Shown: one piece after another, positions 7,309-23,542 of the stretch
Layout: the number at the start of each line of letters is the position of its first letter
Position numbering within the stretch: position 1 is the stretch's first letter
IMG/VR virus record: IMGVR_UViG_643348547_000006
Strand: one strand, 5' to 3'
DNA length: 23,542 bases
Origin: a virus
Lineage: Duplodnaviria; Heunggongvirae; Uroviricota; Caudoviricetes
Position numbers and translations under genes: made by a program
Notes under the pieces: generated by a model
Told to the model about the DNA's origin: nothing
Database searches by the model: none
The model's input: the letters and a program-made list of their open reading frames with translations, nothing else

Positions 7309-8128
7309 GGCACTGTTGCAAAGTTAGCGATGAGGCAGCCTTTTGTCTTATTCAAAGGCCTTACATTTCAAAAACTCTGCTTACCAGGCGCATTTCGCCC
7401 AGGGGATCACCATAATAAAATGCTGAGGCCTGGCCTTTGCGTAGTGCACGCATCACCTCAATACCTTTGATGGTGGCGTAAGCCGTCTTCATGGATTTAA
7501 ATCCCAGCGTGGCGCCGATTATCCGTTTCAGTTTGCCATGATCGCATTCAATCACGTTGTTCCGGTACTTAATCTGTCGGTGTTCAACGTCAGACGGGCA
7601 CCGGCCTTCGCGTTTGAGCAGAGCAAGCGCGCGACCATAGGCGGGCGCTTTATCCGTGTTGATGAATCGCGGGATCTGCCACTTCTTCACGTTGTTGAGG
7701 ATTTTACCCAGAAACAGGTATGCAGCTTTGCTGTTACGACGGGAGGAGAGATAAAAATCGACAGTGCGGCCCCGGCTGTCGACGGCCCGGTACAGATACG
7801 CCCAGCGGCCATTGACCTTCACGTAGGTTTCATCCATGTGCCACGGGCAAAGATCGGAAGGGTTACGCCAGTACCAGCGCAGCCGTTTTTCCATTTCAGG
7901 CGCATAACGCTGAACCCAGCGGTAAATCGTGGAGTGATCGACATTCACTCCGCGTTCAGCCAGCATCTCCTGCAGCTCACGGTAACTGATGCCGTATTTG
8001 CAGTACCAGCGTACGGCCCACAGAATGATGTCACGCTGAAAATGCCGGCCTTTGAATGGGTTCATGTGCAGCTCCATCAGCAAAAAGGGATGATAAGTTT
8101 ATCACCACCGACTATTTGCAACAGCGCC
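7309..8128 (-). mobile_element. IS26-like (IS6 family) insertion sequence, copy 1, 820 bp, no target-site duplication
   Basis: Terminal 14-bp repeats GGCACTGTTGCAAA (7309-7322) and, on the other strand, GGCGCTGTTGCAAA (8115-8128); encodes the Tnp26-like transposase. Flanking octamers differ (CATTGATC vs AAAAGCGG). Confidence 0.9.
7361..8065 (-). CDS. tnp26: IS26-family DDE transposase
   Basis: 234 aa from MNPFKGRHFQRDIILWAVRWYCKYGISYRELQ..., recalled as Tnp26; ATG at 8063-8065. Translation is identical to the copy-2 transposase. Confidence 0.9.
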   Translation of the reverse strand: MNPFKGRHFQRDIILWAVRWYCKYGISYRELQEMLAERGVNVDHSTIYRWVQRYAPEMEKRLRWYWRNPSDLCPWHMDETYVKVNGRWAYLYRAVDSRGRTVDFYLSSRRNSKAAYLFLGKILNNVKKWQIPRFINTDKAPAYGRALALLKREGRCPSDVEHRQIKYRNNVIECDHGKLKRIIGATLGFKSMKTAYATIKGIEVMRALRKGQASAFYYGDPLGEMRLVSRVFEM

Positions 8129-11701: not shown

Positions 11702-11746
11702 AGGGAAAGGTTGCCATCAGGGGAAGAAAGGCGGCAGTGCTGCAAC

Positions 11747-11766
11747 TTGTATCAGTGCTGATACAA
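11747..11766 (-). promoter_or_regulatory. Palindrome TTGTATCAG-TG-CTGATACAA in the S-V intergenic region (candidate Ogr site or hairpin)
   Basis: Perfect 9-bp inverted repeat with 2-nt spacer at 11747-11766; also fits TTGT-N12-ACAA; centred 55 bp upstream of the V ATG. Confidence 0.35.
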
Positions 11767-11769
11767 AGA

Positions 11770-12216
11770 TCACCCCGCCAGCCATTGCAGAATCATGTCG
11801 CGGGTCATTGCCTCAACATCATCATTTACACCCAGAAGGCGACGCTCTGCGTAACGCACCTCCGGTCCCTTACGACTGACGCGATCTCGCAGGCCGTAAT
11901 GGTGAACGCGGGCAATGCGCTGCACCTTGCCTTCAAACTGCACGCTGGCAGAGTCGGCGCTGGCGGAAGTTTTCAGGTATTTTGTGGTGCGCAGCTTTGC
12001 AAACATCTGACGTTTGATACGGCCTTTTTTACTGCGTGCTGTTACCCGTCGCGGTTCATAACTGCTGCCATCTGGATTGCGCTGCATTCTGATATTTTGC
12101 TGCTGTGTCCGGCGTAGTTCCTGCGCCAGCTGGCGCATCATGCGGCTTCTTGCGGCTGGCTCCAGATTCGCCAGCAAGGCACTCAGCCAGTCGTCCACTT
12201 TCTGCAGTTCAGCCAC
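11770..12216 (-). CDS. S: Tail completion protein gpS
   Basis: 148-aa ORF (AELQKVDDWLSALLANLEP...) resembling P2 S; the ORF's first codon is GTG (12214-12216); exact start uncertain. Confidence 0.75.
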   Translation of the reverse strand: MAELQKVDDWLSALLANLEPAARSRMMRQLAQELRRTQQQNIRMQRNPDGSSYEPRRVTARSKKGRIKRQMFAKLRTTKYLKTSASADSASVQFEGKVQRIARVHHYGLRDRVSRKGPEVRYAERRLLGVNDDVEAMTRDMILQWLAG

Positions 12217-12640
12217 GTTTCACCGTCCACATTTCTTCAGGTTCATCAGGTTCCGCTATAGCTTCAACGCTCGACACACTGCCGTCAGTGCTGACCAGCA
12301 CACGCTCCGTCAGTTGCAGGTTGAGGCTGATATCACAGACATCGTTGCGCAGAATATCCACCTCAAAGGTGAATAGCTTTTCCCGTAACGCCGGGTTATT
12401 GATGGCATCGGGCTGGTTATCACGCAGCCACAGCAAAACCGGGGCCATCAGCAGATTCTGGTCGCCGCTGAAATCCTCAATCACCACGTTCAGGGTGTAG
12501 CGGTACTCCCATGACATGGAGCTGGCCCCCGTGGCAACCAGCGAACCGTTATCCACAAACAGATGCAGTTTGTCCGGGTTATTGCGGACATAAGGCACCG
12601 CTTTATTGAGGGCGTGGCGCAGGGATTGTGGTTTGTTCAC
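12209..12640 (-). CDS. R: Tail completion protein gpR
   Basis: ORF 12209..12661 begins with TTG; a GTG at 12638-12640 preceded by AGGAG 8 nt upstream gives an N-terminus (M)NKPQSLRHAL similar to P2 R (MLKPDSLRRAL). Confidence 0.7.
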   Translation of the reverse strand: MNKPQSLRHALNKAVPYVRNNPDKLHLFVDNGSLVATGASSMSWEYRYTLNVVIEDFSGDQNLLMAPVLLWLRDNQPDAINNPALREKLFTFEVDILRNDVCDISLNLQLTERVLVSTDGSVSSVEAIAEPDEPEEMWTVKRG

Positions 12641-14455: not shown

Positions 14456-14919
14456 CAGATAAGCTCCACTGTGCAGTGCGGCGCGTCCTGTACCCGGCTG
14501 ATGGCCCAGCGGGCGTCACGCCATAAATCACCGCTGGCTTCCGCCAGTTCCTCGCCCCGCTTCACACCGGATGCCGTGGCGTCATAGTCCTGGTAACGTT
14601 CGTTGAGCATGGCGCGTGCCCAGCAGTAAACCGCGTTGAAATAGTGCTGAATGCGCTCACTTTTGCCGTCCAGCTGTTCCGCCGGAACCTCTGCCAGCGA
14701 GGCATACCCCAGCATCTGCTGGCATCTGCGAAACTCATACAGCTCTGCGTTGACCTCCGAAATTGCCGACAGCGCAACCTGCTTTAAACGCGGCTGCGTC
14801 ACCGTACCGTCAGTGCGCATCACACTGCGGAACTCCGACAGATCCACATCAGGCCAGAACGGCGTATTCCTGATGATTTCCGCCTGTTCCGGTGCCTGTT
14901 CTGGCGCAACAAACTTCAT
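14455..14919 (-). CDS. L: Head completion/stabilisation protein gpL
   Basis: ORF 14455..14982 begins with GTG; the ATG at 14917-14919 (MKFVAPEQ...) has AGGAGA 8 nt upstream. Internal region (IRNTPFWPDVD..., ELWRD.RWA) resembles P2 L. Confidence 0.8.
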   Translation of the reverse strand: MKFVAPEQAPEQAEIIRNTPFWPDVDLSEFRSVMRTDGTVTQPRLKQVALSAISEVNAELYEFRRCQQMLGYASLAEVPAEQLDGKSERIQHYFNAVYCWARAMLNERYQDYDATASGVKRGEELAEASGDLWRDARWAISRVQDAPHCTVELI

Positions 14920-15014
14920 GCTGCTTTCTCCTGAGATAGAGGGCGGTGGACGGGGTTTTGATGTGGCAGTGCCTTTCGCCACCCCGTGCCGCCCGTGCGC
15001 GGGGGCACGTTCTG

Positions 15015-15665
15015 TCAGCGGCTGTCATTGCGCAGTCTGCGCTCCAGCTGCTGTTTGTCTTTTTTCACGCCACAGCGGGGATCGAGCTGTAACGCATGGT
15101 TGAGATGATTAAGGGCGGAAGCCGGATTACTTTCACTCAGGACAGCGCCAATCGCTTTATGCAGACGCGCCCGTGACTGGTCCGGCATGTCCAGACCGTC
15201 TGTCAGCTCCAGCGTCTGCAGCAACAGATCGACATCAAAGCCGGTAGTGGCAAGCATTGCGCTCTGTGCCGCGTCTGCCATTTCCTCTGCCAGCACGGTT
15301 TGCACATTGCGGTTACCCAGCGGCATCACCCAGCCATGACGCAGGGCATGACGCCCGATCTCCAGCGCCCCGGCATAATCTCCGGCATCAATGCGCCACA
15401 GCATCACGTACATCAGCACGTCATCCTGTTGAGCGCCTCCGGCAGCCAGAACACCCTCTGCCCAGGCGGCGTATTTCGGCAGCAGCTCCACCTTGATTTC
15501 CGCTTTTTTGACCGTGGACTGAACGCCCTTGAGACGGCGGCGATCTTCCGCCAGTTGCAGCAGCATCAGGTCATAGCCCGACGCGTGGCGAACGCTGCCG
15601 CCCTCACGGGCGGCCTGTTCAGCCTGAACGCGCAGGCGATGCTGCCGTGCGGGACTCAGGCTCAT
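15015..15665 (-). CDS. M: Terminase small (endonuclease) subunit gpM
   Basis: 216 aa; N-terminal and central similarity to recalled P2 M (QDD.LM.VMLWR.D.GD.AGALEI...); ATG 15663-15665. Confidence 0.8.
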   Translation of the reverse strand: MSLSPARQHRLRVQAEQAAREGGSVRHASGYDLMLLQLAEDRRRLKGVQSTVKKAEIKVELLPKYAAWAEGVLAAGGAQQDDVLMYVMLWRIDAGDYAGALEIGRHALRHGWVMPLGNRNVQTVLAEEMADAAQSAMLATTGFDVDLLLQTLELTDGLDMPDQSRARLHKAIGAVLSESNPASALNHLNHALQLDPRCGVKKDKQQLERRLRNDSR

Positions 15666-15668
15666 GAA

Positions 15669-16727
15669 TTACGCTCCGGTTTCTGCTGCGGCGGCGCTAA
15701 AATCGCCAATCTGGATGTTTTCCACCAGTGCAGCGCAGCGGTAGTCCTCAACCACATAGGCTTCGTTAACGGATTCAAAGTTTTCAATCCGGTCACGTTT
15801 CGGGTTGTCGATAACTGAACGGCGGCGGGTGTCTTCCTGCCAGTAAATGGACAGGTTATCCAGACGGGTGATCAGCAGTGCATTCGGCGGGAAGAACGGC
15901 GCACGCACGGCCTGCAGGCCACCCATGCGTTTCTGACTGATGATCATATCGGCAGCCAGTTTTTCACTGTTTTCCTGCTCTTTGTTGACCAGCGGGAAAT
16001 ACTTGTCAGACAGCAGTTCACGACCGCAAATCACCACCAGATCGTCATCGTCCTGGTAGACCACGTCGATAAGCTCATTGACGGCATCCATCACCACAGC
16101 GTCCAGGTTGGCATATTCGCCACCTTTACCGACTTTCACCGCGCCCGGTGTGGTTTCACCGCCCGTGGTGGTGCTGCCCATAACGTGATCCGGTGCATCC
16201 TCACGGATTTTCTGCAGCCAGCCTTTGTTCACATCCTGCAGCAGCGGGTTTTCACTACGGTTGGAGGTTTTCGCACGCTTCACGCCGTTAAAGCCGATCA
16301 TGATGCGGTCCAGTGCCTGACGTTTCACGATGGCGTCACGGATACGCACCTGGAAATCCTGAAACTTCGCCCACAGGTCCAGCTTCGCGTAGGTCAGTAC
16401 CGTGTCAAAGTTGGTCTGCTCGCATTTATATTCCACATCGACCATCAGCGTCGGATCGACAGGTTCACGCTCTTTCGCGGTGGTATCAGTGGTTCCGGCA
16501 ATGGTGCTGCCAACTCCCAACCCCAGCAGCTGACCGGACTGCTCAGTCACTGGCGTGACGTTAATCAGCGTCAGGAAAGCGGCGGACTGCTGGATCTGGT
16601 CTTCCAATGTCTGCTGCACGGACGGCTCTACGGTGAACTTGCTGGACAGTTCTTCAACTGCCACACCGTTCAGACGCGCCAGTTGCTGCAGATAAGCGTT
16701 AAAAGCAAAGCGGGTATTCTTCTTCAT
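15669..16727 (-). CDS. N: Major capsid protein gpN
   Basis: 352-aa ORF between O and M; ATG 16725-16727; size and position match P2 N. Confidence 0.9.
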   Translation of the reverse strand: MKKNTRFAFNAYLQQLARLNGVAVEELSSKFTVEPSVQQTLEDQIQQSAAFLTLINVTPVTEQSGQLLGLGVGSTIAGTTDTTAKEREPVDPTLMVDVEYKCEQTNFDTVLTYAKLDLWAKFQDFQVRIRDAIVKRQALDRIMIGFNGVKRAKTSNRSENPLLQDVNKGWLQKIREDAPDHVMGSTTTGGETTPGAVKVGKGGEYANLDAVVMDAVNELIDVVYQDDDDLVVICGRELLSDKYFPLVNKEQENSEKLAADMIISQKRMGGLQAVRAPFFPPNALLITRLDNLSIYWQEDTRRRSVIDNPKRDRIENFESVNEAYVVEDYRCAALVENIQIGDFSAAAAETGA

Positions 16728-16743
16728 CAGGTTTTGTGCTCCA

Positions 16744-17577
16744 TCAGCAATTGGTCAGAGTGTCAGCGGGGGCGTTACCGCCTGTTGCACGCTGGCGGTA
16801 GTCCTGGCGGCTGTCTTCATGGCTCAGCTTGTCCACCAGTTCGTTAAAGGCGGTCTGCTGTGCCTGCAGGGCAGTCTCCAGCTCAGACAGGCGTTCTTCC
16901 TGCTCAGACAGGGATTTTTCGGTGCGCGCACTCAGGTTCTGCTGCTCAGTGGCGACCAGTTCCACGGCCTTATGCACATCAGAGAACCGGGCGTCATCGG
17001 ACTGCTCTTTTTTGGTGAACAGCGCCGTGACACGGGCAAACAGGGACGGTTTGTCATCCTGGATTTCTTCCAGTTCGATCACCGTTTCCTCTGCAGCGGT
17101 AAAAAGATTGGCGGGATTCTGCTTGCGGTTTGCCAGCGGGTTATGGGCTGCACTGGCGCTGAATGTCAGCATTTCAGTGCCCAGACTGGCAGGGTCATCA
17201 GTGGCAGCCAGGCCGACCAGGTAGGCTTTGCCCGTATCAGCGAACTTCGGGCTAACTTCCATAGATGTGAATAATTTCTGGCCTTTTTTCACCAGTTCCA
17301 CCAGGGACTCCGTTGGCTCAACGTCGGCATACAGCGCCATCTTGCCTGCCAGCGGACCTTCCTTGATTTCTTCAGCAAACAGCGCCGTCACCTTGCCGTA
17401 GCGGTTAAAGGTGCTGTCCGGCAGATAAGACTTGATGTGCTCAAGGTTAATCAGCGCGGTATACACCGCCGGGTTGTAGCTGGCTGCCATCTGTTCCAGC
17501 CATTCACGCTGGATTTCGCGTCCGTCGGTGGTGGCACCTTCCACCCCGATGCGAAAACGCTTTGCTTTCACTGTCAT
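16744..17577 (-). CDS. O: Capsid scaffolding protein gpO
   Basis: 277 aa; close to recalled P2 O (FRIGVEG...DGR.I......YNP.VY...INLEH...YLVGLA.TDDPASLGTE...ATGG..AD.L.NC). Confidence 0.85.
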   Translation of the reverse strand: MTVKAKRFRIGVEGATTDGREIQREWLEQMAASYNPAVYTALINLEHIKSYLPDSTFNRYGKVTALFAEEIKEGPLAGKMALYADVEPTESLVELVKKGQKLFTSMEVSPKFADTGKAYLVGLAATDDPASLGTEMLTFSASAAHNPLANRKQNPANLFTAAEETVIELEEIQDDKPSLFARVTALFTKKEQSDDARFSDVHKAVELVATEQQNLSARTEKSLSEQEERLSELETALQAQQTAFNELVDKLSHEDSRQDYRQRATGGNAPADTLTNC

Positions 17578-17654
17578 GAGCCGTGCTCCGTTAGAAAAAA
17601 CTTACTGGAGCCTTATGGTTGCGGTGATGGGGGCAGTGAAACAATGCGCGGTAT

Positions 17655-17674
17655 TTGTACCGACAACCACACAA
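17655..17674. promoter_or_regulatory. Candidate Ogr-binding dyad (TTGT-N12-ACAA) in the divergent P/O promoter region
   Basis: ttgtaccgacaaccacacaa at 17655-17674, centred about 87 bp upstream of the O ATG and 55 bp upstream of the P ATG. Confidence 0.45.
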
Positions 17675-17719
17675 ACCGCAGGCGGGGAAAGCCTTCATTC
17701 AAGGTTGTAGGTTTGTGCC

Positions 17720-18826
17720 ATGAACACCACACTGACACCCGCAGATCTCGATCCCCGTCGGCAGGCCATGCTGCTGTACTTTCAGGGATACCGCGTAGCC
17801 CGCATTGCTGAAATGCTGGGCGAGAAAGTTGCAACCGTTCACAGCTGGAAAAAACGCGACAAGTGGGGTGACTATGGGCCGCTGGATCAGATGCAGCTCA
17901 CCACCGCCGCACGCTACTGCCAGCTCATCATGAAGGAGCACAAAGAAGGGAAAGATTTCAAAGAGATTGACCTGCTGGCGCGCCAGTCGGAGCGCCACGC
18001 GCGGATCGGCAAGTTTAACAATGGCGGCAACGAAGCCGACTTAAACCCTAACGTCGCCAACCGCAATAAAGGCCCACGCCGTCAGCCGGAAAAGAATGTT
18101 TTCACCGATGAGCAGATTGAGAAGCTGGAAGAAATCTTCCATTCCTCCATGTTCAACTACCAGCGCCACTGGTGGGAAGCCGGAAAAACCAACCGCATCC
18201 GCAACCTGCTGAAGTCACGCCAGATCGGCGCGACCTTTTACTTTGCCCGTGAAGCCCTGATTGACGCCCTGCTTACCGGACGTAACCAGATTTTCCTTTC
18301 CGCCAGCAAGGCACAGGCCCACGTCTTTAAGCAGTACATCATCGACTTCGCCAAAGAAGTGGGGGTGGAGTTGAAAGGCGATCCGATGGTGCTTCCTAAC
18401 GGGGCCACGCTTTACTTCCTCGGCACCAATGCCCGCACGGCCCAGAGTTATCACGGCAACCTGTATCTGGATGAATATTTCTGGATACCGAAATTCCAGG
18501 AGCTGCGCAAAGTGGCTTCCGGTATGGCTATTCACAAAAAATGGCGACAAACCTATTTTTCCACGCCATCCAGCCTGACACACAGTGCTTATCCGTTCTG
18601 GTCCGGTGCGCTGTTCAACCGTGGGCGCAACAAGGCCGACAAGGTGGACATCGACCTGTCCCACAGCAATCTGGCCCCCGGCCTGCTGTGCGCAGACGGG
18701 CAATACCGCCAGATAGTCACCGTGGAAGATGCGGTGCGCGGCGGCTGTAACCTGTTCGACCTTGACCAGTTGCGCATGGAGTACAGCCCGGACGAATACC
18801 AGAACCTGCTGATGTGCGAGTTTGTG
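17720..18826 (+). pseudogene. P: Terminase large (ATPase) subunit gpP, 5' portion, interrupted by IS26
   Basis: ORF 17720..18853 reads about 369 codons of P and then 8 IS-encoded codons (GAVANSRW) before a stop inside the IS26 end. Confidence 0.85.
18819..18826. repeat. 8-bp target-site duplication AGTTTGTG (left copy) of IS26 copy 2
   Basis: Identical octamer immediately flanks both ends of the 820-bp element. Confidence 0.85.
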
Positions 18827-19646
18827 GGCGCTGTTGCAAATAGTCGGTGGTGATAAACTTATCATCCCTTTTTGCTGATGGAGCTGCACATGAACCCATT
18901 CAAAGGCCGGCATTTTCAGCGTGACATCATTCTGTGGGCCGTACGCTGGTACTGCAAATACGGCATCAGTTACCGTGAGCTGCAGGAGATGCTGGCTGAA
19001 CGCGGAGTGAATGTCGATCACTCCACGATTTACCGCTGGGTTCAGCGTTATGCGCCTGAAATGGAAAAACGGCTGCGCTGGTACTGGCGTAACCCTTCCG
19101 ATCTTTGCCCGTGGCACATGGATGAAACCTACGTGAAGGTCAATGGCCGCTGGGCGTATCTGTACCGGGCCGTCGACAGCCGGGGCCGCACTGTCGATTT
19201 TTATCTCTCCTCCCGTCGTAACAGCAAAGCTGCATACCTGTTTCTGGGTAAAATCCTCAACAACGTGAAGAAGTGGCAGATCCCGCGATTCATCAACACG
19301 GATAAAGCGCCCGCCTATGGTCGCGCGCTTGCTCTGCTCAAACGCGAAGGCCGGTGCCCGTCTGACGTTGAACACCGACAGATTAAGTACCGGAACAACG
19401 TGATTGAATGCGATCATGGCAAACTGAAACGGATAATCGGCGCCACGCTGGGATTTAAATCCATGAAGACGGCTTACGCCACCATCAAAGGTATTGAGGT
19501 GATGCGTGCACTACGCAAAGGCCAGGCCTCAGCATTTTATTATGGTGATCCCCTGGGCGAAATGCGCCTGGTAAGCAGAGTTTTTGAAATGTAAGGCCTT
19601 TGAATAAGACAAAAGGCTGCCTCATCGCTAACTTTGCAACAGTGCC
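18827..19646 (+). mobile_element. IS26-like (IS6 family) insertion sequence, copy 2, 820 bp, with 8-bp target-site duplication
   Basis: Ends GGCGCTGTTGCAAA (18827-18840) and TTTGCAACAGTGCC (19633-19646). Transposase and antisense-ORF translations are identical to copy 1 up to the element boundary. Confidence 0.9.
18890..19594 (+). CDS. tnp26: IS26-family DDE transposase
   Basis: 234 aa from ATG 18890-18892; identical translation to copy 1. Confidence 0.9.
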   Translation: MNPFKGRHFQRDIILWAVRWYCKYGISYRELQEMLAERGVNVDHSTIYRWVQRYAPEMEKRLRWYWRNPSDLCPWHMDETYVKVNGRWAYLYRAVDSRGRTVDFYLSSRRNSKAAYLFLGKILNNVKKWQIPRFINTDKAPAYGRALALLKREGRCPSDVEHRQIKYRNNVIECDHGKLKRIIGATLGFKSMKTAYATIKGIEVMRALRKGQASAFYYGDPLGEMRLVSRVFEM

Positions 19647-19654
19647 AGTTTGTG
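19647..19654. repeat. 8-bp target-site duplication AGTTTGTG (right copy) of IS26 copy 2
   Basis: Matches 18819-18826 exactly. Confidence 0.85.
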
Positions 19655-20314
19655 GACGATCTCGCGTCCGTATTTCCGCTCAGCGAGCTGCAGGCGTGCA
19701 TGGTGGACAGCTGGGAAGTCTGGACCGACTTTCATGCACTGGCTCTGCGCCCGTTTGGCTGGCGCGAAGTGTGGATCGGTTATGACCCGGCAAAAGGTAC
19801 GCAAAACGGCGACAGCGCCGGATGCGTGGTGGTGGCACCGCCAGCCGTGCCTGGTGGTAAGTTCCGCATTCTTGAGCGTCACCAGTGGCGCGGGATGGAC
19901 TTCCGCGCCCAGGCTGACGCCATCAAAAAACTGACCGAACAGTACAACGTGACCTATATCGGTATCGACTCAACCGGCGTTGGTCACGGGGTTTATGAGA
20001 ACGTGAAAGCGTTCTTTCCTGCCGTCCGGGAGTTTGTCTACAACCCCAATGTTAAAAACGCCCTGGTACTCAAGGCCTACGACATTATCAGCCACCGCCG
20101 TCTGGAGTTTGACGCCGGGCACACCGACATTGCGCAGTCATTTATGGCAATCCGTCGCGCTACCACTGCCAGTGGCAACCGCCCGACCTATGAAGCCAGC
20201 CGCAGCGAAGAAGCCAGCCATGCCGATCTGGCCTGGGCAACAATGCACGCACTGTTTAACGAACCGCTGCAGGGCGAGTCCGCCAATACCAGCAATATTG
20301 TGGAGATTTTTTGA
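19647..20314 (+). pseudogene. P: Terminase large subunit gpP, 3' portion
   Basis: Removing the IS and one duplication copy restores a continuous frame ...LLMCEFVDDLASVFPLSELQ...; stop TGA at 20312-20314 overlaps the Q ATG. Confidence 0.85.
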
Positions 20315-21348
20315 TGGGAAAGAGTAAGAAGAACCGCGCTGCGTCGACGAAACAGATCCAGCATAAAAGCCAGACTTCAGCCGAAGCATTCAGCTTCGGT
20401 GATCCCGTTCCTGTTCTGGACCGCCGCGAACTGCTGGACTATGTGGAATGCGTACAGATGGAGTGTTGGTACGAGCCACCCGTAAGTTTTGACGGACTGG
20501 CGCGCACCTTCCGGGCTGCCGTGCATCACAGTTCCCCGATTGCAGTAAAGTGCAACATTCTGACCAGTACCTATATCCCTCATCCGCTGCTCAGCCAACA
20601 GGCTTTTTCGCGTTTTGTACAGGACTATCTGGTATTTGGTAACGCCTACCTGGAGAAACGCACGAACCGATTCGGTGAAGTTATCGCCCTTGAGCCTGCG
20701 CTGGCAAAATACACCCGACGCGGGTTAGACCTGGATACCTACTGGTTTGTGCAATACGGTATGACAACCCAGCCGTATCAGTTCACGAAAGGCAGCATTT
20801 TTCAGCTGATGGAACCGGACATCAACCAGGAGATCTACGGCCTGCCCGGCTATCTTTCTGCCATCCCATCCGCTTTGCTCAACGAGTCCGCCACGCTGTT
20901 CCGCCGCAAGTATTACATTAACGGCAGTCATGCCGGCTTCATCATGTACATGACCGATGCCGCGCAGAACCAGGAGGATGTGAACAACCTCCGCAACGCA
21001 ATGAAAAGCGCCAAAGGTCCGGGTAACTTCCGCAATCTGTTTATGTACTCGCCTAATGGTAAAAAAGACGGACTTCAGATTATCCCGTTGTCAGAAGTCG
21101 CAGCGAAGGATGAATTTCTGAATATCAAAAATGTTAGTCGCGATGACATGATGGCAGCACACCGCGTGCCGCCACAGATGATGGGGATAATGCCAAATAA
21201 TGTTGGGGGGTTTGGGGATGTGGAGAAGGCAAGTAATGTATTTGTACGCAATGAACTAATACCATTGCAAAAAAGATTTGAAGAGTTAAATGTTTGGTTA
21301 AAAGAAAAAGTGATACAGTTCGAAGAATATAAACTTCATTCAAATTAG
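20314..21348 (+). CDS. Q: Portal protein gpQ
   Basis: ATG 20314-20316 overlaps the P stop (TGATG); 344 aa, the size I recall for P2 Q. The last ~50 codons are markedly AT-rich. Confidence 0.85.
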   Translation: MGKSKKNRAASTKQIQHKSQTSAEAFSFGDPVPVLDRRELLDYVECVQMECWYEPPVSFDGLARTFRAAVHHSSPIAVKCNILTSTYIPHPLLSQQAFSRFVQDYLVFGNAYLEKRTNRFGEVIALEPALAKYTRRGLDLDTYWFVQYGMTTQPYQFTKGSIFQLMEPDINQEIYGLPGYLSAIPSALLNESATLFRRKYYINGSHAGFIMYMTDAAQNQEDVNNLRNAMKSAKGPGNFRNLFMYSPNGKKDGLQIIPLSEVAAKDEFLNIKNVSRDDMMAAHRVPPQMMGIMPNNVGGFGDVEKASNVFVRNELIPLQKRFEELNVWLKEKVIQFEEYKLHSN

Positions 21349-21354
21349 CTTTAA

Positions 21355-21373
21355 GGCTGCCAGTTTGGCAGCC
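21355..21373 (+). terminator. Candidate hairpin/terminator after Q (GGCTGCCA-GTT-TGGCAGCC)
   Basis: Perfect 8-bp stem with 3-nt loop 7 nt after the Q stop; the downstream T-tract is weak, so it may instead be a stability or recognition element. Confidence 0.35.
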
Positions 21374-21477
21374 AGAACCTTTATCGCCATTTTAGATAAA
21401 AAGCAAAAAATGGATCAGTAATATGAACCGCCCCGGGAATCCTGGAGACTAAACTTCCTGAGAAAGAGGTAAACAGG

Positions 21478-21804
21478 ATGACTAAAAATACTCGTTTTTC
21501 CCCCGAAGTCCGTCAACGGGCAGTCCGTATGGTTCTGGAAAGTCAGAGCGAATATGACTCACAATGGGCGACAATTTGTTCCATTGCTCCAAAGATTGGC
21601 TGTACGCCGGAGACTCTGCGTGTCTGGGTTCGCCAGCATGAGCGGGATACCGGGGGCGGTGATGGAGGGCTCACCACCGCTGAACGTCAGCGTCTGAAAG
21701 AGCTGGAACGTGAAAATCGTGAACTGCGCCGCAGTAACGATATCCTTCGCCAGGCTTCCGCTTATTTTGCGAAGGCGGAGTTCGACCGCCTCTGGAAAAA
21801 ATGA
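21478..21804 (+). CDS. IS3-family transposase OrfA (helix-turn-helix / leucine-zipper subunit)
   Basis: 108 aa, [23 protein letters not shown]...; recalled as IS629/IS1203 OrfA. Confidence 0.85.
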
Positions 21805-22691
21805 TGCCACTGCTGGATAAGCTGCGTGAGCAGTACGGGGTCGGACCGCTATGCAGCGAACTGCATATTGCCCCGTCAACGTATTACCACTGTCAGCAAC
21901 AGCGACATCATCCGGATAAACGCAGTGCCCGTGCGCAGCGCGATGACTGGCTGAAGAAAGAGATACAGCGCGTATACGATGAAAATCACAAGGTATACGG
22001 TGTGCGTAAAGTCTGGCGTCAGTTGTTACGGGAAGGTATCAGAGTGGCCAGATGCACTGTGGCACGTCTCATGGCGGTTATGGGACTTGCCGGTGTTCTC
22101 CGGGGTAAAAAGGTCCGTACGACCATCAGCCGGAAAGCCGTTGCCGCAGGCGACCGCGTAAACCGTCAGTTCGTGGCAGAACGACCTGACCAGCTGTGGG
22201 TGGCTGATTTTACTTACGTCAGCACATGGCGGGGCTTCGTCTATGTGGCGTTCATCATTGATGTGTTTGCCGGATACATCGTGGGGTGGCGGGTCTCATC
22301 GTCCATGGAAACGACATTCGTGCTGGATGCACTGGAGCAGGCGTTATGGGCCCGTCGACCGTCCGGCACGGTCCATCACAGTGATAAAGGTTCTCAGTAT
22401 GTATCGCTGGCCTACACACAGCGGCTTAAGGAAGCCGGATTACTGGCATCAACAGGAAGTACAGGCGACTCGTATGACAACGCGATGGCGGAGAGCATCA
22501 ATGGTCTTTACAAAGCGGAGGTAATACACCGTAAGAGCTGGAAAAACCGTGCAGAAGTGGAACTGGCCACACTCACGTGGGTGGACTGGTATAACAATCG
22601 ACGATTGCTGGAAAGGCTGGGCCATACTCCTCCGGCAGAAGCAGAAAAAGCTTATTATGCTTCCATCGGAAACGATGATCTGGCAGCCTGA
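21801..22691 (+). CDS. IS3-family transposase OrfB (DDE catalytic domain); OrfAB fusion predicted by -1 frameshift
   Basis: 296-aa ORF in the -1 frame relative to orfA, overlapping at the A-run GGAAAAAATGA; contains DDE-type motifs ([15 protein letters not shown]). Confidence 0.85.
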
Positions 22692-22733
22692 GTTCACAGA
22701 TAAAACACTCTCCAGGAAACCCGGGGCGGTTCA

Positions 22734-23133
22734 GGTGACCAAATACCGAATTACCTTTGTAAGAACGAAGGGGAAGAAAAACAGAAGCATCCCTATCAGT
22801 AAAGAGCTTTACGAAGAGATCATGGCGTTTGATGGGTTCAATTTCTTCACAGACTGCTATTTTCAATTTTTATCCGTGATGGAAAAAACGTCTATCGTGC
22901 TCCCTCGCGGTCAACTGACACACGTTCTGCGCCATACTTTTGCGGCGCACTTCATGATGTCGGGTGGAAACATCCTGGCCTTACAAAAAATTCTCGGACA
23001 CCACGATATAAAAATGACTATGCGTTACGCACATCTGGCACCGGATCATCTGGAAACGGCGCTCCGTTTCAATCCTCTGGCAACATTGCCAAGTGGCGAC
23101 AAAGTGGCGGCAGCGGTTGGCATTACCCCGTAA
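22734..23133 (+). pseudogene. int: Tyrosine integrase, C-terminal catalytic fragment (5'-truncated at the IS629 boundary)
   Basis: Frame open from the IS end; encodes ...RTKGKKNRSIPISKELYEEI...HVLRHTFAAHFMMSGGNILALQKILGHHDIKMTMRYAHLAPDH, i.e. the Lys, His-x-x-Arg, His and Tyr motifs of tyrosine recombinases; the N-terminal domain and first catalytic Arg are absent. Confidence 0.75.
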
Positions 23134-23151
23134 TAACCACCACTGACCACC

Positions 23152-23187
23152 AATCTAACTTATTGTTTCTAATCTAACTTATTGTTT
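23152..23187 (+). repeat. Tandem direct repeat (2 x 17 bp AATCTAACTTATTGTTT, 2-bp spacer) in the attL region
   Basis: Read directly from sequence, 19 bp after the int stop; could be integrase arm-type sites or part of the att core. Confidence 0.5.
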
Positions 23188-23194
23188 TCATTAA

Positions 23195-23542
23195 CCCGTT
23201 TACATAAATGGCAGTAACATTTATGCCTTCCGCGCCAATTGTTCGTATCGTCGCCACTTCGAGAGCTGGTTTCATGCTGACGGTGCCGCTCCGGGAACTA
23301 TCCATGAGATGGAGTCTTATCACGGAATGTTGGCCTGTGTGGTCGCAGGAGCAGGCATTGCGCTTATTCCACGCTCTATGCTGGAAAGTATGCCGGGGCA
23401 TCACCAGGTTGAAGCGTGGCCGTTAGCTGAGCAATGGCGTTGGTTAACAACCTGGCTGGTCTGGCGTCGCGGTGCGAAAACGCGTCCGCTTGAGGCATTT
23501 ATTCAACTACTGGATGTGTCTGACTCGGCAAAACAGAGTTAG
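23195..23542 (+). CDS. LysR-type transcriptional regulator, C-terminal portion only (host flank)
   Basis: Frame opens at 23195 after a TAA, with no upstream coding capacity; ...[28 protein letters not shown]... resembles the C-terminal effector-domain region of LysR-family regulators; stop TAG at the window end. Confidence 0.5.

Follow-up and report, generated by a model that had tools for sequence, protein, structure and literature searches.

The locus studied here raises the question of why an insertion sequence (IS) stands where a P2-family prophage would be expected to carry its early genes. The DNA is IMG/VR virus record IMGVR_UViG_643348547_000006, a stretch of 23,542 nucleotides (nt) from a virus of the Caudoviricetes that was analysed at its full length and is called the window below. 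An initial annotation of the window had placed an IS629-like element between the portal gene Q and a fragment of the integrase gene int, and had explained the arrangement by an IS-associated deletion of the whole early region. The window was compared with 5,426 complete Escherichia coli genomes, and the sister prophages of strains CE10, AF57 and AR_0013 were fetched for base-level comparison. The results indicate that IS629 very probably inserted into a P2-family prophage, and that adjacent deletions anchored at its right inverted repeat (IRR) then removed the early region and left a dead remnant. The features around the IS are as follows.

20311 to 21348, plus strand: intact portal gene (homologue of P2 Q), the final phage gene ahead of the deletion; open reading frame (ORF) with a match to Pfam Phage_portal.
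21355 to 21373, no strand: hairpin GGCTGCC-AGTTT-GGCAGCC with a 7-bp stem, between the portal gene and a convergent cargo gene; from direct sequence reading.
21381 to 21423, minus strand: last 43 nt (…ITDPFFAFYLKWR*) of the convergent cargo gene; from alignment to strain Ecol_224.
21424 to 22733, plus strand: complete IS629 (IS3 family), 1,310 bp, with its left inverted repeat (IRL) at about 21424 to 21448 and its IRR at about 22709 to 22733.
21478 to 21804, plus strand: IS629 orfA; Pfam HTH_Tnp_1.
21759 to 21875, plus strand: ALIL pseudoknot (RF01497), scoring 120.2 bits against a gathering score of 50.
21801 to 22691, plus strand: IS629 orfB with the DDE integrase core; Pfam rve and HTH_21.
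22734 to 23133, plus strand: 3' fragment of the prophage tyrosine integrase gene, codons 219 to 350 plus stop, starting at the right deletion endpoint (int nt 654).

The element between the two phage flanks starts with TGAACCGCCCCGGG at 21424 and finishes with ...CCCGGGGCGGTTCA at 22733, so that it has TG...CA ends, and its imperfect terminal inverted repeats match at 14 of the 14 terminal bases and at 23 of 25 overall. The ALIL pseudoknot is predicted to stimulate a -1 frameshift at the A-run near 21796, which would yield the OrfAB transposase, and a 'programmed frameshift' has been annotated on identical IS copies by the Prokaryotic Genome Annotation Pipeline (PGAP). The copy shows 100% identity to one of full length in strain 167, for which PGAP gives only 'IS3 family transposase', and 100% identical over 795 bp to a shortened copy that PGAP named 'IS3-like element IS629 family'. 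Furthermore, two O157:H7 copies showed ungapped identities of 96.2% and 94.8%, and one of the two was named 'IS1203 family'. IS1203 is an isoform of IS629, the sub-types of which are 4–5% apart (PMC3271280). The name IS629 is therefore justified by the identity to IS629/IS1203 copies together with the isoform status, and the ends, the ORFs, the pseudoknot and the near-identical named copies turn the IS629-like element of the initial annotation into a complete IS629. E. coli genomes hold thousands of copies at least 95% identical to this one. In the sister lineage, 33–40 IS629-matching places were found per genome, which is consistent with an active element.

The base triplets that adjoin the IS read ATA at its left end and GGT at its right end. 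There is thus no direct repeat, and the 3–4 bp target-site duplication of IS629 is missing, as had been noted from the outset. Such a duplication is a property of the insertion event and not of the element, and its lack is expected when a deletion has replaced one flank.

On the left side, the portal ORF ends with TAG in the ORF list of the window, and its product shares 100% identity with the 'phage portal protein' annotated in CE10, AF57 and AR_0013. The distance from the portal stop to the left end of IS629 is 75 bp (21349–21423), exactly as first reported. Positions 20900–21423, which cover the end of Q and these 75 bp, are 99.8% identical to Ecol_224, the closest intact relative, in which the match then runs on into the coding sequence (CDS) of the cargo gene. 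The full gene in Ecol_224 (locus L004, CDS 14482–15732, minus strand) encodes a 416-aa AAA-ATPase-like protein with a weak match to Pfam AAA_22. By this alignment, the left deletion endpoint is in the 3' end of the cargo gene (21381–21423), which would also be the original target of the IS. The hairpin between the two convergent genes is likely a bidirectional terminator, by analogy with P2 tQ and 186 tW, since a terminator is annotated at the equivalent position in the P2 and 186 records. Because the hairpin lacks a T-run, it was missed by a simple terminator scan.

The late genes upstream are those of a P2-like phage. The P2-type late gene set is present in its order (ogr/D ... FI, H, J, W, V, lysis genes, L, M, N, O, then P, Q) and is colinear with that annotated in the sister prophages. 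Among classified phages, the nearest is Escherichia phage 500465-1 (genus Wadgaonvirus, Peduoviridae), with 98.5% identity over 10.7 kb of the late genes.

On the right side, the IS abuts positions 22734–23133, which are 100% identical to the 3' end of the gene for the 350-aa integrase of E. coli CE10. The catalytic arginine R207 (TGARW) has been lost and the fragment begins 12 residues past it, at codon 219; the initial annotation was right that the fragment lies beyond the first catalytic arginine. The motifs HVLRH (281–285), GH (306–307) and RY (315–316) are kept, and Phage_integrase of Pfam matches only with the C-terminal part of its profile. The N-terminal arm-binding and core-binding domains have been deleted (Int_N, 57–165). 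An active tyrosine recombinase carries the full R-K-H-R-H/W-Y set and the N-terminal domains, and here only HxxR, H and Y remain. A 194-codon ORF (22549–23133) was also seen at this junction; it starts inside the right end of IS629 in a frame other than that of orfB and crosses into int. For the chimeric products from three start choices, no identical protein was on record in the protein collection, and the ORF is probably not expressed.

Each part of the arrangement has a match of close to 100% in annotated genomes, and a chance pattern can be dismissed. The comparison with the sister genomes carries the argument. The left junction was common to only four of the 5,426 genomes, namely CE10, N32, AF57 and AR_0013. 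This junction, ...GGATCAGTAATA followed directly by TGAACC, and the IS itself (1,310 of 1,310 positions) are identical in the window, CE10, AF57 and AR_0013, and N32 gave a 100% match over the left junction and the entire IS. The three fetched prophages differ from the window by 0–3 single-nucleotide polymorphisms over about 20 kb, and the lineage is therefore recent and shared. The right junctions differ. In CE10 and N32, the IS is joined to cII (position 21386 of the CE10 locus L002, equal to L003 17815 and L004 23066), and to its right lie the truncated cII, a small gene at the position of apl, cI, a small ORF, ISEc53, a ClbS-like gene, an intact int and yneJ'. The right junction of the window is at int nt 654 (L002 25465), 4,079 bp beyond that of CE10, and the junction of AF57 and AR_0013 is at int nt 727 (L002 25538), 73 bp further. 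Of the 11 genomes with the Q-end variant of the window, seven have no IS there; the other four have the IS and all four are deleted. A 2-bp overlap (CA) at the right junction of the window could be taken for microhomology, but it was given no weight, since no such overlap occurs at the other two junctions.

Positions 22912–24669 of the CE10 locus hold ISEc53 and a gene of the ClbS/DfsB family (colibactin-resistance-like) between the immunity region and int. Both lie inside the extra 4.1 kb lost from the window.

An intact IS, an invariant junction on one side and nested endpoints on the other are the classical signature of IS-mediated adjacent (one-ended) deletion. This is the pattern found, with the IS and the left junction identical in four genomes besides the window and three right junctions in all. 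The deletions are taken to be anchored at the IRR because the left side is fixed, the right side is variable and no reciprocal junctions occur in the 5,426 genomes. Similar behaviour has been described before. For instance, IS3-family elements make deletions of varied length beside a retained IS (PMC8860574), and in a passage of PMC9943667 that cites Kusumoto 2011, IS629 together with the IS-excision enhancer (IEE) is reported to give deletions of a few nt to more than 40 kb adjacent to the IS.

The following course would account for the data. A Peduoviridae prophage with a 186-type early region would have integrated at a secondary site inside yneJ, and IS629 would then have inserted 75 bp downstream of the portal gene, into the 3' end of the cargo gene. 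From the IRR of this single copy, the flanking phage DNA would have been deleted, with the IS and the left junction untouched. One deletion would have reached cII (the state of CE10 and N32, about 8.5 kb) and removed the cargo genes, cos, the Tum/DinI-like gene, A, dam, the TraR/DksA-family gene, fil and most of cII. The deletion in the lineage of the window would have reached int nt 654 and additionally removed the rest of cII, the apl-position gene, cI, ISEc53, the ClbS-like gene and int codons 1–218, and a further 73 bp would have gone in AF57 and AR_0013. Aberrant strand transfer or cleavage, directed from the IRR at DNA close by, is the likely route, and repair in which the IEE takes part may have followed. 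What is observed is the anatomy of the locus, its endpoints, the nested series and the lack of the early genes; that the IS629 transposase made the deletions, and in which order the steps followed, we infer.

The same end product, an intact IS with no target duplication, could also arise by RecA-dependent recombination between two direct IS629 copies, one on the Q side and one on the int or cII side, which would leave a hybrid IS without matching flanks. With more than 30 IS629-matching places in the lineage, new insertions must be frequent. However, an extra insertion and a recombination would be needed for each of the three endpoints, always with the same left copy, and nested one-ended deletions are documented behaviour of the IS3 family. 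Reciprocal junctions were searched for with 100-nt probes in which the cII or int flank was joined to 27 nt of the left end of IS629. Neither an int-IRL nor a cII-IRL junction was found in the 5,426 genomes; among 1,320 flank-matching records none entered the IS, and the best stopped at 73 of the 100 nt. The absence of such a junction from the sample is not proof that there was no second copy. On balance, recombination between two copies seems improbable.

The order of events may also be reversed, with an IS-independent illegitimate recombination making the deletion and IS629 inserting later at the scar. This is formally possible for the first step, from Q+75 to cII, and nothing specific favours it. 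A later insertion should leave a 3–4 bp duplication, but none was seen at any of the three junction types, and the same left junction and the same IS would be needed at three separate scars. Moreover, none of the 11 genomes with the Q-end variant has a Q+75/int or Q+75/cII junction without the IS. This order of events is the least credible of the alternatives.

Another explanation concerns the assembly. A collapsed IS629 repeat could have joined the Q-side and int-side flanks of separate copies, with the early region really present. IS629 is multicopy in the lineage, and the exact right junction of the window was found in none of the complete genomes, as a mis-join would have it. However, the right flank lies in the same prophage and in the same orientation, 4.1 kb past the CE10 junction and 73 bp before that of AF57 and AR_0013, and a random mis-join would land elsewhere. 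An artefact would still require an IS629 inserted in int, and three IS copies are contiguous in the window, suggesting a long-read assembly. A mis-assembly is thus very hard to credit, although it ranks slightly above a deletion that preceded the IS.

Several points weigh against deletion by a single IS629 copy. The missing target duplication is weak evidence alone, being common for IS629; in O157:H7, a duplication was present at only 21 of 47 IS629 sites and at the other 26 of 47 there was none (PMC3271280). No genome with the simple insertion, in which IS629 at this site would be flanked by a 3–4 bp duplication, was found in the comparison, so the starting state is itself a reconstruction. 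The exact right junction of the window rests on one assembly. Furthermore, the data cannot separate the action of the transposase from homologous recombination with another IS629 copy that has since disappeared, and the deletion in the window may have come either through a CE10-type intermediate or straight from the ancestor. In addition, the deleted content was rebuilt from relatives at the rcdA site with mosaic cargo, and its size is approximate. Adjacent deletion from the IRR of one copy nevertheless explains the fixed left side and the three right endpoints together. It is tempting to read CE10, the window and AF57/AR_0013 as a time-ordered record of one IS629 progressively deleting rightward in one clinical E. 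coli lineage, but this stronger version is doubtful.

The right end of the window shows where the prophage stops and the host begins.

23134 to 23211, no strand: phage arm of the right attachment site attR, the same as the attR arm of related rcdA-adjacent prophages up to base 23211.
23212 to 23542, plus strand: 3' part of the host LysR-family gene yneJ, split by the prophage; Pfam LysR_substrate.

The crossover point is at ...AATGG (23207–23211). The 3' part of yneJ is annotated in the sister genomes as 'LysR substrate-binding domain, missing N-terminus', and yneK, ydeA and marC follow it. In CE10, the prophage is bounded by yneJ halves of 546 bp (the 5' part, beside ogr) and 339 bp. These halves bound one contiguous prophage, and the int fragment therefore belongs to the same element; its origin from a different element was accordingly rejected. 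Moreover, the early genes are not found just outside the window, as the flanks in the sister genomes are bacterial, with yneJ', yneK, ydeA and marC on the right and the N-terminal part of yneJ' beside ogr on the left. Neither of the two findings that the initial annotation had named as fatal to its reading has therefore come up.

Integrases 98–99.8% identical to this one sit beside rcdA where checked, with 99.8% for S56 and about 95% for the int 3' end of Ecol_224. The match to the int 3' end of the window stops at the phage/host boundary in at least 1,000 genomes, and the yneJ location occurs in only four of the 5,426. By these comparisons, the prophage is a secondary-site lysogen disrupting yneJ. 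The yneJ attachment site shares only about AATGG with attP, and a longer core, AAATGGGTTTTTTGTT, is found at rcdA-adjacent sites (window 23134–23300; L011 8740–8880; L003 20400–20540). Two 17-bp direct repeats, AATCTAACTTATTGTTT, lie just past the int stop at 23152–23168 and 23171–23187 and are present in related prophages too; they are probably Int arm-binding sites.

To place the deletion endpoints, both flanks were aligned to intact relatives, as the initial annotation had proposed, and they fall at positions 14525 and 26240 of the Ecol_224 locus. In the intact rcdA-adjacent relatives, the order from Q to int is cargo, cos, a DinI/Tum-like gene, the replication endonuclease gene A, dam, a TraR/DksA-family gene, DUF2732, DUF5347, fil, cII, an apl-position gene, cI and int. 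S56 agrees with Ecol_224 on the content between the endpoints. Aligning the early region of the relatives to the window gave no match besides the int 3' end. Measured on Ecol_224, the total loss is 11,716 bp (14525–26240) and the CE10 deletion is 8,541 bp (14525–23065). A two-step estimate that includes the CE10-specific cargo gives 8.5 + 4.1 = 12.6 kb. The deletion of the whole early region that was first proposed is thus upheld by the comparative series, but its size, put at 8–10 kb, has to be raised to about 11.7–12.6 kb.

The content of the lost region also departs from the P2 layout with old/tin, C and cox that had been expected. CI and CII in the sister strain and in the intact relatives are of the 186 type (Pfam Phage_CP76), and an immunity region of the P2 C/cox type was not found. 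The prophage is therefore a member of the Peduoviridae with a phage-186-type switch (cI/apl/cII) and not the C/cox switch of P2.

The packaging site cos was lost with the early genes. In Ecol_224, it was placed at L004 15841–15859 by alignment to the annotated cos of phage 186 and by its CATGCA-rich right flank. The candidate has 19 nt, agrees with 186 cos at 15 of 19 positions, and lies 1.39 kb (Ecol_224) or 0.61 kb (S56) past the portal stop. Its right flank in both relatives aligns well with 186 (TGCCC.CTTTATG..., with repeated CATGCA). Exact P2 and 186 cos patterns are absent from every locus, and only the search with up to four mismatches and the 186 alignment found cos, in intact relatives only. 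In the window, no cos-like site was detected with up to four mismatches allowed. When the cos block was searched against a phage database, all of the records returned were prophage-derived and none starts at cos, and comparison with the genome starts of PsP3 and Wphi added nothing.

The cargo carried between Q and cos and in other slots differs from relative to relative; examples include one AAA-ATPase-like gene, an AAA ATPase with DUF4435, a DUF6694 lipoprotein and a protein with a TIR domain. The slots are at L004 14482–15732, L003 1–1586 and 10434–12744, and L012 23280–24582. They may form a variable cargo or defence hotspot.

As for the consequences, the initial annotation held that the element cannot be induced, replicated or excised, and the gene roles known from 186 and P2 support this. 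The remnant would not be inducible, replicable, packageable or excisable, because it has no cI, no Tum-like antirepressor, no A with its origin, no cos, no Apl and no active integrase. In the 186 record the origin lies inside A, so that the loss of A is also the loss of the origin; without cI there is no immunity and nothing to induce.

Two further IS copies lie among the late genes of the window.

7309 to 8128: IS26 copy 1, 820 bp, replacing 2,379 bp; transposase at 7361 to 8083, minus strand; from comparison with CE10.
18827 to 19646: IS26 copy 2, a simple insertion in the terminase ATPase gene P; transposase at 18872 to 19594, plus strand; 8-bp duplication AGTTTGTG.

Copy 1 has no 8-bp duplication, its flanks being ...TTGATC on one side and AAAAGCGG on the other. 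The 2,379 bp that it replaces (CE10 L002 5149–7527) carried a DNA invertase gene, a gp53-like gene, two tail-fibre assembly genes and the 3' end of the tail-fibre gene. The pattern resembles adjacent deletion by IS26 and would be the second case in this prophage of DNA lost through an IS. Copy 2 splits gene P into 17720–18853 and 19634–20314. The two copies are identical and inverted, carry the same single-base variant in one of the terminal repeats (GGCGCTGTTGCAAA), and could invert the 10.7 kb segment between them. Neither is present at those positions in CE10, N32, AF57 and AR_0013. By damaging the terminase gene and the tail-fibre/invertase region, the two copies disable the remnant independently of IS629. 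The remnant is thus dead several times over, and it makes no plausible domesticated tail or particle system.

Compared with known systems, the element is the same as IS629/IS1203 of O157:H7, with 1,310 bp, the orfA/orfB frameshift and ALIL pseudoknot, the DDE transposase and the TG...CA ends. The outcome is also the same as in O157:H7, with or without IEE: prophage genes are gone beside a kept IS, over variable lengths from one end, and duplications are missing. However, the host lineage here is that of CE10, an O7:K1 neonatal-meningitis isolate, and not enterohaemorrhagic E. coli (EHEC), and the IS629 of the window is 4–5% diverged from the O157 copies compared. With 186 (Eganvirus) and P2 (Peduovirus), the prophage shares the late-gene order, in which the P-Q operon ends beside cos, and the prophage order attL, ogr/B, late genes, Q, cos, early region, int and attR. 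The cos core and right flank of 186 are conserved in the intact relatives. The switch of P2 is C/cox, whereas that of the relatives is of the 186 cI/apl/cII type. Furthermore, the Q (W) gene of P2 and 186 ends at 187 and 196, about 170–180 bp from the end of cos (cos 1–19), whereas in the closest relative cargo lies between and cos is 1.39 kb off. The remnants in CE10, N32, AF57 and AR_0013 have the same yneJ site, IS629 copy and left junction as the window, and differ from it in the right junction and in the IS26 copies.

The locus should accordingly be labelled a defective P2-family prophage remnant and not an inducible prophage, and the int and yneJ fragments should be labelled pseudogenes. 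The IS junctions are usable as strain-typing markers for the lineage. The nested deletions are a natural example of IS3-family adjacent deletion in prophage decay, although the element and the process were both already known, and the same remnant with slightly different endpoints is already annotated in RefSeq genomes. If the order of the deletions were confirmed, the locus would capture in nature the 'insertion-deletion' steps by which IS3 elements have been proposed to streamline genomes and form operons. The series could then also serve to estimate how often, and with what bias towards one end, IS629 makes adjacent deletions outside EHEC.

Minor differences among the sister prophages were seen in the tail genes. 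A tail gene of CE10 has an 81-bp tandem duplication (L002 about 11718–11879; window 12319–12399), which makes it 513 bp long against 432 bp, and this is not present in the window or in AF57. In AF57, an inversion (L001 3896–7715) has its endpoints in the tail-sheath and tail-fibre genes around the phage invertase and has split both genes. The tail-sheath/tail-fibre order is uninverted in the window and in CE10.

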